Position numbers and translations under genes: made by a program
Source of the DNA: Octopus vulgaris
Taxonomy: Eukaryota
Assembly (NCBI GenBank): GCA_951406725.2
Contig: OX597832.1
Span: 28,892,001-28,956,000 of the forward strand
DNA length: 64,000 nt
Direction: 5' to 3'
The notes under the pieces: generated by a model
What the model was told of the DNA's origin: nothing
What the model saw: only the letters and a program-made list of their open reading frames with translations
The model's database searches: none
Shown: piece by piece, positions 43,661 to 55,821 of the stretch
Position numbering within the stretch: the stretch's first letter is position 1
Layout: every line of letters starts with the position of its first letter

Positions 43661-43889
43661 CTGCATGCACGTTGTATCATTGTGAAATAATAACGTGGAA
43701 TAATAATGTGTTGAGGGAGAGGATGAGTACAGAGTGAGTACAAAGAGTACGGGTGCGGAATAAGTACAAACAGAGAGAGAGAGAGGAGGAGAGATGAGTG
43801 TAAAATGAGTCAGGAGAATAAAGAAGTTTTGAATGAACAGAGAGAGAGAGAGTGGTATACGGCGGCTCAACGTAAGCAAATTACGCAGT

Positions 43890-44273
43890 GGGGCGGGTGG
43901 TGGCGCTAAACCGTGATAAGTGAAGCAGCAATGTCATTTTGGGTCCGAATATGTTTGGTGCACATTCGGTGCCATTCCTCGTACGGTGATTAGAAAAGCA
44001 TAAGAGAGGCGATCCCTTAATGCAGCCGTCTGTTTAGTGTCTGTGACCGATGAGGAGACAACCACTCCGAAATCTTAACATCTCACAGTCTAGGTAGGTG
44101 GCGCTGCGAGCTGATCTAAGTGTATACGCACCATTTGTCAACAAGCGAGATATATTCCCTGTGACGAAACGCAGTGAGTAGCTTGTTCCCCCAGTTCGAA
44201 CATGCATCGAGCATATTCGGATGGATAATGGCATTGCAGTCTCACTTATCACGGTTTATCGCTCCCCCTCCGT
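43890..44273 (+). mobile_element. Retrozyme-like element: ~380-nt foldback with a central type I hammerhead
   Basis: Terminal arms pair: TAAACCGTGATAAGTGA 43907-43923 with TCACTTATCACGGTTTA 44242-44258, and TCCGAATATG 43944-43953 with CATATTCGGA 44212-44221. HHR at 44041-44088. Homologues at 55232-55820. Confidence 0.7.
44026..44101 (+). ncRNA. Extended type I hammerhead ribozyme
   Basis: CTGTGA-CCGATGA-GGAG acaacca CTCC-GAAA-tcttaac-ATC-TCACAG; predicted cleavage after C44082. Stem I continues past a TGT/T internal loop into 12 bp (44026-44037 with 44090-44101) containing 5 G-U pairs. Confidence 0.8.
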
Positions 44274-44336
44274 CAATATTTTATAGCTTCGTAAACCCAT
44301 AGCAACACAATATGGAATATATATGAACGAAATATG

Positions 44337-45012: not shown

Positions 45013-45523
45013 TATATTTCTTTATTGCCCTCAAAGGGCTAAACATTGAGGGGACAAACAAGGACAGACAAAGGCATTAAGTCGATTACATAGACCCCAG
45101 TGCGTAACTCGTACTTTATTTATCGACCCCGAAAGTATGAAAGGCAAAGTCAACCTCGGCGGAATTTGAACTCAGAACGTAACGACAGACGAAATACCTA
45201 TTCCTTTACTACCCACAAGGGGCTAAACATTTAGGGGACAAACAAGGACAGACAAAGGGATTAAGTCGATTACATAGGCCCCAGTGCGTAACTGGTACTT
45301 TATTTATCGACTCCGAAAGGATGAAAGGCAAAGTCGACTTCGGTGGAATTTGAACTCAGAACGTAAAGACAGACGAAATACCTATTCCTTTACTACCCAC
45401 AAGGGGCTAAACACAGAAGGGACAAACAAGGACAGACACACGGATTAAGTTGATTACATAGACCTCAGTGCGAAACTGGTACTTTATTTATCGACTCCGA
45501 AAGGATGAAAGGCAAAGCACGCC
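45013..45523 (-). mobile_element. SINE group B, tandem trimer, bracketed by a 23-bp duplication
   Basis: Three ~180-bp units start at ~45015, ~45200 and ~45382. Flanks GGGAAAGTGA(A/G)TACATTTATATA at 44990-45012 and 45524-45546. Confidence 0.9.
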
Positions 45524-55180: not shown

Positions 55181-55373
55181 CACGTAGCACCACACATACA
55201 GCGCTAGAGCAGTGATGAGTTTAAAAACAAATGTCGCCAGTTCAAGTATGCTTTAAGTATATTCGAACCCGTGAGGAAGTGATTCACTGAATTTTGTGAT
55301 GGAGATAATTTCTTGCTCTGTAGAGAGACAGTTGTAAACAGACTGAGTCATTTCGCAGCTTTCCCAAACAAAA

Positions 55374-55421
55374 GTTGTGGGCGCATGCATTTCGGAGTAG
55401 TTATCTCCTCCTCAGCACCAG
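55374..55421 (-). ncRNA. Type I hammerhead motif (GGAG/CTCC family), decayed
   Basis: Minus strand: CTGGTG-CTGAGGA-GGAG ataacta CTCC-GAAA-TGCATGCG-CC-CACAAC. Canonical core; U16.1 is C. Confidence 0.7.
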
Positions 55422-55631
55422 AAACCCGAACGGCAGACGTTGCGAACTGACATGAGAAACAAATCCCTTTTATTATACACCCGTCATCGTACAGTGATTG
55501 ATTGCGCCATTCGGTGGCTCGGCGTAATTAAAATACACGACACGTCACTGCTTCGCGTTTTCGTCCCGTATTTTCAGCGAGGCGCCGATTTGAGCAGCCA
55601 GTGATAGTATGTATGTATGCCTTTCCGGTGT

Positions 55632-55679
55632 CTGGTGCTGGAGAGGAAATAACTACTCCGAAATGTAGGCACCCACCAG
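55632..55679 (+). ncRNA. Type I hammerhead motif (GGAG/CTCC family), decayed
   Basis: CTGGTG-CTGGAGA-GGAA ataacta CTCC-GAAA-TG tagg CA-CC-CACCAG. Perfect 6-bp stem I; A6 is G and U16.1 is C. Confidence 0.7.
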
Positions 55680-55821
55680 TCTTGTTTGGGAAAGCTGAGA
55701 ATTGGCTCAGTGTGTTTGCACTTATTTGTCTGCAGCAAGAAACTTTTTCCATGACCAAAATAAAGTGAACAGCTTCATCATGAGTTCGAATATGCCTCAA
55801 GCATAACTGAACTGGTAACAG

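Follow-up and report, generated by a model that had tools for sequence, protein, structure and literature searches.

We consider it likely that the element at positions 43851-44275 of the window (the whole stretch of 64,000 nt of Octopus vulgaris DNA that was analysed) is a degenerate retrozyme copy, inverted in part, that was probably inserted by the machinery of Penelope-like elements (PLEs) and probably had a circular RNA of unit length as its template. Taken alone, it is an unremarkable and probably dead repeat. It belongs to a family that we assign, on sequence grounds, to a lineage of non-LTR retrozymes, whose cleavage and circles we infer. What is new here is a dated, lineage-wide U4C change in the ribozyme core and the scars of PLE insertion in a protein-free element.

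The studied copy and its hammerhead motif

A reading of this DNA from its letters alone (the sequence-only reading) had described a retrozyme-like, rod-folding element with an extended type I hammerhead ribozyme at 43890-44273. Those ends were wrong, and the extent had to be corrected to 43851-44275. The motif was accurately located: stem I (CTGTGA at 44041-44046, TCACAG at 44083-44088), the core (CCGATGA at 44047-44053, GAAA at 44069-44072), stem II (GGAG/CTCC with a 7-nt loop, 44054-44068), the AUC triplet with its predicted cut after 44082, and a stem I extension of 12 bp with five G-U pairs, followed by GCAG/CTGC and GATC/GATC, are all present, as is the perfect 17-mer that pairs the two ends (43907-43923 with 44243-44259). 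The element has no credible open reading frame, the longest ATG frame being 20 aa on the plus strand and 66 aa on the minus strand. Its parts are as follows, unit position 1 being the base right after the hammerhead cut.

43851-43968, minus strand: inverted arm, reverse complement of unit ~113-221 (local alignments to L007, L003, L030 and L043)
43967-44275, plus strand: forward segment, unit ~219-343 and then 1-192 (profile score 327 bits)
44011-44037, plus strand: 5' half of the stem I extension, which forms an uninterrupted 25-bp helix in the family; 9 nt are deleted in the studied copy
44041-44046, plus strand: 5' strand of stem I, partner 44083-44088; three pairs changed on both sides in the sister subfamily
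44047-44053, plus strand: core C3-C4-G5-A6-U7-G8-A9, the U4C variant; C4 in the subfamily source
44054-44068, plus strand: 4-bp stem II with its loop of 7 nt (from the sequence and the paired cells in copies)
44069-44082, plus strand: G12-A13-A14, stem III and C17; predicted cut after 44082
44083-44116, plus strand: 3' strands of stem I and its extension
44230-44240, plus strand: 3'-end site A (unit ~149-157), putative RT start, with 36 of the 84 segments ending at unit 140-165
44238-44275, plus strand: ~40-nt tail up to 3'-end site B (unit ~190-198), with 26 of the 84 segments ending at unit 185-200

The forward segment diverges from the family majority by about 10% (0.096; 9.6%) and holds a single hammerhead, whereas the 2026 preprint on vertebrate retrozymes (bioRxiv 10.64898/2026.07.22.740005) takes two consecutive complete hammerheads as its criterion of an active element. 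The copy is probably inactive because of two private changes, and not because of its C4. One of them, G15.3C at 44074, breaks stem III, which is a 10-nt palindrome in the family; the other is the 9-nt deletion. The hammerhead fold lies 5.7 kcal/mol above the predicted minimum, and the self-pairing of the stem III palindrome is abolished (+0.6 vs -8.8). The earlier suspicion that U4C may have inactivated this copy was thus right about the probable inactivity and wrong about its cause, since C4 was already in the source.

The Rfam hammerhead model, which had been proposed as a check, found no match at E<=10 on 43680-44330, and over the full window the matches listed (150 of 376) consisted of microsatellite noise alone. 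A model built from family copies scores the locus at 80.7 bits, a value that is circular and has no weight alone. Elsewhere in the genome there are six Rfam Hammerhead_1 matches (L181-L186), unrelated to the 343-nt unit, three of them of a common ~108-nt form with a long stem II; the family is absent from these six RF00163 matches (73 scored candidates).

Read by eye, the open frames of the window contain no recognisable host gene. A 184-nt repeat occurs in 2.7 tandem copies at 45015-45517; it is common and interspersed in the genome and interrupts some loci of the family.

The 343-nt family and the history of its ribozyme

The search for dispersed copies suggested by the sequence-only reading returned 638 first-look candidates in the genome (2.8 Gb); 40 were scored, the best other copies among them having 77-86% identity. 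A 23-mer of the lineage has 178 exact genome matches, against 0 for the reversed control. Direct partial tandems set the unit period at 342-343 nt in L007, and it is 333-344 nt in 17 of the 19 copies measured. Insertions span 0.2-1.8 units in the loci examined, and 55 segments longer than 200 nt differ from the majority base by 4-15% (median 10%), with no young copy seen among them. All counts refer to loci chosen by similarity or core patterns, which favours long copies with the ribozyme; 29 of the first 80 loci were dropped as repeats of the same place, and L010, which duplicates L009, was omitted everywhere but in the AT count and one locus list. L009/L010 and L218/L219 are likely segmental duplications, and so are L264 and L266-L269, whose five nearly identical copies lie on a single chromosome (contig C17). 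At L258, the 5' end of the copy is joined to (TTAGGG)-like repeats.

The unit is non-coding. We rejected an autonomous Penelope-like element as its identity, as the family has no RT + GIY-YIG ORF, and likewise a tRNA-derived SINE: no tRNA-like head was found in 7 of 7 loci, where decayed heads can be missed. Partial tandems are common (23 of 84 segments exceed 350 nt); TRF gave no period of 250-420 nt, as a long tandem array would have, in 30 loci, and two hammerheads stand in direct tandem only at L015 and L026 of the first 30. Family fragments also occur in contigs of four runs guessed to be RNA (24, 19, 9 and 3 contigs), none of which spans the stretch; these fragments speak neither for nor against expression.

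At the level of the family, the type I hammerhead is genuine. Across 50 copies (1932 cells), 90.1% of the cells are paired, vs 29-44% in slid controls. Stem I continues as a 25-bp helix (89% of its cells paired in the 50 copies) with five G-U majority pairs that can be read only on the plus strand. The stems covary, which had been named as a check: the main and sister subfamilies together show 132 double-sided changes, where shuffles give 55.8 +/- 11.9 and slid controls 27-50; these counts reflect few events inherited by many copies and are not probabilities. Among 66 domains, pair 15.4-16.4 alone is U-A 35 times, C-G 23 times and U-G 4 times. Core letters other than C4 are canonical in the majority, and core positions decay like the rest (~10%), as expected of dead insertions. 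In four other copies of the subfamily, the three-way junction lies 1.2-2.9 kcal/mol above the predicted minimum, and U7 allows the core to mispair with the cut site (GAUG/CAUC). At L011 and L012 (contig C4), an additional G behind A9 recurs in two arms of the former and both arms of the latter, a variant of the source RNA. We also considered a dimer-only ribozyme: stem III is a perfect 10-nt palindrome in three of its versions and has a U-U centre in the CUUG subfamily, and use of the ribozyme as a dimer is possible. With dispersed copies, conserved and covarying stems, and a multicopy non-coding unit of 343 nt within the 170-400 nt range of retrozymes, the earlier assignment to a retrozyme-type family with a type I hammerhead is borne out.

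U4C is not private damage of the studied copy; it is family-wide and was already in the source of its subfamily. In 47 copies, nucleotides 4-5 read CG 26, TG 8 and CA 8 times. All 20 CpG sites taken together read CG/TG/CA 583/178/163 times of 1006 (58/18/16%), and TpG sites read CG 30 and CA 4 times of 1194. Since nucleotides 4-5 follow the CpG pattern and not the TpG pattern, C4 must have been in the subfamily source. The CpG at G12 reads TG in 12 copies and CA in 2, a bias that might hint at selection on G12 but concerns a single site among the 20. Canonical-looking CUGA copies of this subfamily are accordingly products of CpG decay.

A sister subfamily, with U4 in 35 of 36 copies, was discovered through a second, two-armed copy in the window, which BLAST with the studied element as query had missed.

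55200-55526, minus strand: left arm of an older sister-subfamily copy, with the canonical U4 core CTGAGGA
55623-55820, plus strand: right arm of the same copy

The sister subfamily counts 463 candidates, and its stem I differs by double changes. Sorting 134 copies by the centre of stem III left 49 unsorted and gave the following groups: CAUG, 29 copies, nucleotides 4-5 being TG in 27, 16% from the group majority; CUUG, 12 copies (TG 9, CG 2; 15%); CUAG, 17 copies (CG 8, CA 2, TG 4; 12%); and UUAA, 27 copies (CG 10, CA 9, TG 6; 10%), into which the studied copy falls. A midpoint-rooted tree, which carries no support values, gives the same order of subfamilies. These data indicate that the lineage went through four stem III types, that C4 is derived from U4 and predates the last two of them, and that stem III exchanged C-G for U-A after C4 had arisen.

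The genome also contains an unrelated young element of ~180 nt in (TA)n tracts (L085:110-345; L131-L150), with 1013 first-look candidates at 88-99% identity. Its type I hammerhead caps a hairpin of ~37 bp. Of 20 loci, nine match the core pattern, and in all nine the core is CCGACGA (C4).

Insertion footprint and the origin of the apparent rod

The 384-nt stretch folds better than 100 of 100 shuffles (z = -9.75 on the plus and -5.65 on the minus strand); without the inverted arm, the forward part alone reaches z = -1.5. In all four natural tandem copies tested (L002, L006, L014 and L003; in L014, arm and forward part map to 27-131 and 128-448), the reversed arm (43851-43968) lies immediately upstream of the forward part. 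The insertion therefore copied ~420 nt, more than one unit. Unit positions 113-190 are present twice in opposite orientations, which explains the terminal helix. Each arm has about ten non-CpG departures, four of them common to both, hence the perfect 17-mer. The junction of the arm contains no flank DNA, so that the inversion was most likely produced in the course of insertion; contigs of two public runs from one study bridge this junction, though one run may stem from the very sample that was assembled.

The apparent rod is thus an insertion artefact and not an RNA fold. The unit measures 343 nt, its circular folds are branched in 4 of 4 printed, and neither a rod-folding circular RNA of ~380 nt nor end pairing as a feature of the RNA unit, both proposed earlier, is supported. 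Over 66 positions, the terminal arms form 52 Watson-Crick pairs, 6 G-U pairs on the plus strand and 3 on the minus strand, with 5 other; the argument that G-U pairs reveal an RNA strand consequently holds for the stem I extension and fails for these arms, which carry no strand signal. For 17 natural one-period copies, circular folds of the sense strand gave z from -0.5 to -10.7 (20 shuffles each), the sense circle being stabler than the antisense one in 13 of 17. Rod-like folds at such loci should be regarded with caution, as they may be insertion artefacts.

An endogenised viroid-like, rod-shaped circular RNA would have accounted for a strongly folding 384-nt stretch whose size is within the viroid range. 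We hold it to be very improbable, since the rod derives from the inverted arm, the antisense core with GAAA occurs in 0 of 24 long segments (the sense one in 13), the copies form successive star-like subfamilies in the manner of retroelements, and viral contigs show no match. The viroid-like alternative of the sequence-only reading is abandoned on the same grounds.

The ends of the copies point to the mode of insertion. In 50 loci with 84 segments, 36 3' ends fall at unit 140-165 (site A) and 26 at 185-200 (site B), i.e. 62 of 84 at two sites ~40 nt apart where 10 would be expected, and beyond these ends the flanks are unrelated immediately. The 5' ends are spread, and only one of the 84 segments ends within 10 nt of the cut. 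A profile applied to 104 loci of all subfamilies places 63 and 58 of 158 3' ends at sites A and B, respectively; as the profile ends at unit 197, the 58 may include unrecognised wraps. We counted 24 head-to-head inverted junctions in 23 of the 50 loci: 14 have site A at one end and site B at the other, one is A-A, none is B-B and nine are other. The studied copy is among these nine, since its left end is unit 221, neither A nor B; it terminates at site B. Flanks have an AT content of 0.71 vs 0.63. Those of two-armed loci share at least 7 nt in 8 of 16 cases (control 4.6%), with clean abutting duplications at only about three two-armed loci (repeats of ~7-9 nt at L002, L014 and L073) and no target-site duplication at the studied copy.

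Terminal inverted arms such as those of the studied copy would also fit a MITE or foldback DNA transposon that contains the hammerhead motif by chance. Nonetheless, 24 of 40 single-cluster loci are one-way, armless insertions, arm lengths and junctions vary at every locus, and target repeats are of variable length or absent; moreover, the stems show covariation, and within the stem I extension G-U pairs are biased towards one strand. With no fixed TIRs and no constant-length target duplication, this explanation was rejected, and the chance that it is correct seems negligible.

PLE insertions are described as having an inverted 5'-truncated arm and a tail of 30-40 bp at one end (bioRxiv 2021.04.23.441226), and an anole PLE is reported to use two internal RT start sites and to cleave and extend both target strands in vitro (PMC11167929). 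The octopus copies show two 3'-end sites with a tail at one end, together with inverted 5'-truncated arms and partial tandems. We read these ends as a PLE-type insertion signature, which the sequence-only reading had overlooked, and it is very likely that PLE enzymes moved the family.

PLEs with an intact 781-aa RT + GIY-YIG frame exist in the genome, and the 343-nt unit has no likeness to PLEs in 50 PLE loci, mostly of one young family. In that family (L111-L114, e.g. G000:C6:133343500-133350000), copies are 96-99% identical, have an upstream frame of up to 479 aa besides the 781-aa RT + GIY-YIG frame, form pseudo-LTR partial tandems and end in (TA)n; pattern scans of them found no hammerhead. 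The copies of the 343-nt family could themselves be 5'-truncated pseudo-LTR ends of an autonomous Penelope-like element: the insertion shapes are alike, hammerheads reside in PLE pseudo-LTRs, and Xenopus retrozymes are related to pseudo-LTRs according to the 2026 preprint (bioRxiv 10.64898/2026.07.22.740005). This is improbable, given that the same unit recurs ~343 nt upstream of the 3' end (23 of 84 segments exceed 350 nt) and that a PLE protein query matched 1 of 86 loci, in a separate fragment behind a (TA)n tract at L058, and, weakly, 1 of 30 in a further set. The L058 fragment (L058:1850-2890) is a 5'-truncated piece of a different PLE family, shares 43% identity with the 781-aa protein and lies next to a copy of the 343-nt family.

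The existence of segments longer than 350 nt and the paucity of ends at the cut imply a template longer than the linear unit. Read-through of the cut site occurs in 61 of 84 segments, a figure inflated by the choice of loci. We rejected the 5' ends as a record of cleavage, as they are not significantly enriched at the cut (6 of 123 vs 4.4 expected, P=0.28), nor are those of a second set picked downstream of it (~5 of 70 by eye). Sharing of non-CpG variants between the two passes within an insertion is 21%, or ~14% when the reference L007 is left out, vs a background of 8%; this modest excess does not separate a circle from a multimer.

Proposed mechanism and relation to known systems

Starting from a transcribed source locus, the ribozyme would release RNA of unit length, which a host ligase would close into a circle. 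A PLE protein would then nick AT-rich DNA on one or both strands, and cDNA primed at site A, site B or both would give one-way or two-armed insertions. In the studied copy, the first cDNA would have begun at site B, and a second priming at about unit 221 would have written the next 118 nt in reverse, thereby creating the apparent rod; this is the geometry of twin priming known from L1 work.

On balance, we favour a circle as the template, and an uncut multimer is a serious possibility that we place somewhat below even. In particular, the same family might have used the same PLE machinery with a dead C4 ribozyme, an uncut linear RNA longer than the unit serving as template and its hairpins as protein-binding sites. 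Such an account is less likely, but agrees with several observations: ribozyme-dead anole PLE RNA is reported to insert like the wild type in vitro (PMC11167929), U4C is said to reduce in vitro activity considerably (PMC3088659), 5' ends are not in excess at the cut, and U7 lets the core mispair with the cut site (GAUG/CAUC). It is less easily reconciled with the change of pair 15.4-16.4 from C-G to U-A on both sides after U4C, with the remaining core letters, canonical in the majority, with the viroid infectivity that U4C still permits (PMC3088659), and with C4 in the unrelated young family (9 of 9 core-pattern loci among 20). We therefore think that the C4 ribozyme probably still cut, slowly or with the help of a protein.

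The switch from U4 to C4, its spread through two more subfamilies, the repair of stem III and the unrelated C4 family led us to a tentative idea, which we consider possible at best: a slowed hammerhead may have been selected for in RNA circles copied by PLEs. If true, a ribozyme that is slow, or that acts with the aid of a PLE protein, would leave the circle intact for a round of copying, which would answer what blocks the ribozyme in animal retrozyme circles. The four dated subfamilies offer a natural series in which this idea can be followed.

More generally, the octopus lineage records a dated change of a conserved ribozyme letter within a spreading family, and searches with the canonical CUGA core or with Rfam models overlook whole hammerhead families of this kind. 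Published work, as far as the sources go, proposes that PLEs move animal retrozymes but lacks a mechanism; the octopus scars match the predictions from PLE biochemistry in vitro and name two putative RNA start sites. Our literature search, over sources other than subscription journals, Repbase and the supplement of PMC7229834, found no paper on cephalopod retrozymes.

The core change is identical to a natural viroid variant cited in PMC3088659. In that viroid U4C is a rare variant, whereas in octopus it is the fixed state of two amplifying subfamilies.

The metazoan non-LTR retrozymes of coral, mussel and axolotl described in PMC7229834 resemble the octopus family in their type I hammerhead with a palindromic stem III, in their non-coding units of 170-400 nt (~350-390 bp in mussel, 343 nt in octopus), in a well-paired, branched fold and in the presence of PLEs in the same genome. 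They differ in that they are presented as tandem repeats or arrays, while the octopus loci examined are dispersed insertions, and in that the octopus family is old and decayed, with C4 fixed in two subfamilies. PLE-type ends, which PMC7229834 proposes on indirect grounds, are visible in the octopus copies. The vertebrate retrozymes interpreted as PLE derivatives (bioRxiv 10.64898/2026.07.22.740005) share the PLE link and the chromosome-dispersed monomers; the evidence given there is co-occurrence and homology to Xenopus pseudo-LTRs, whereas in octopus it is the insertion footprint, and the homologous PLE reported for Xenopus has no counterpart among the 50 octopus PLE loci.

As for PLEs themselves, Poseidon of Anolis (PMC11167929) likewise has two internal 3'-end sites downstream of the hammerhead and a tail between them, and inverted 5'-truncated arms, partial tandems and AT-rich flanks are common to PLEs (PMC11167929, bioRxiv 2021.04.23.441226) and the octopus family. 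In contrast to the PLEs described in these sources, the octopus unit lacks an ORF, has a full stem II and a long stem I instead of a minimal hammerhead, and has its putative start sites ~154 and ~194 nt after the cut.
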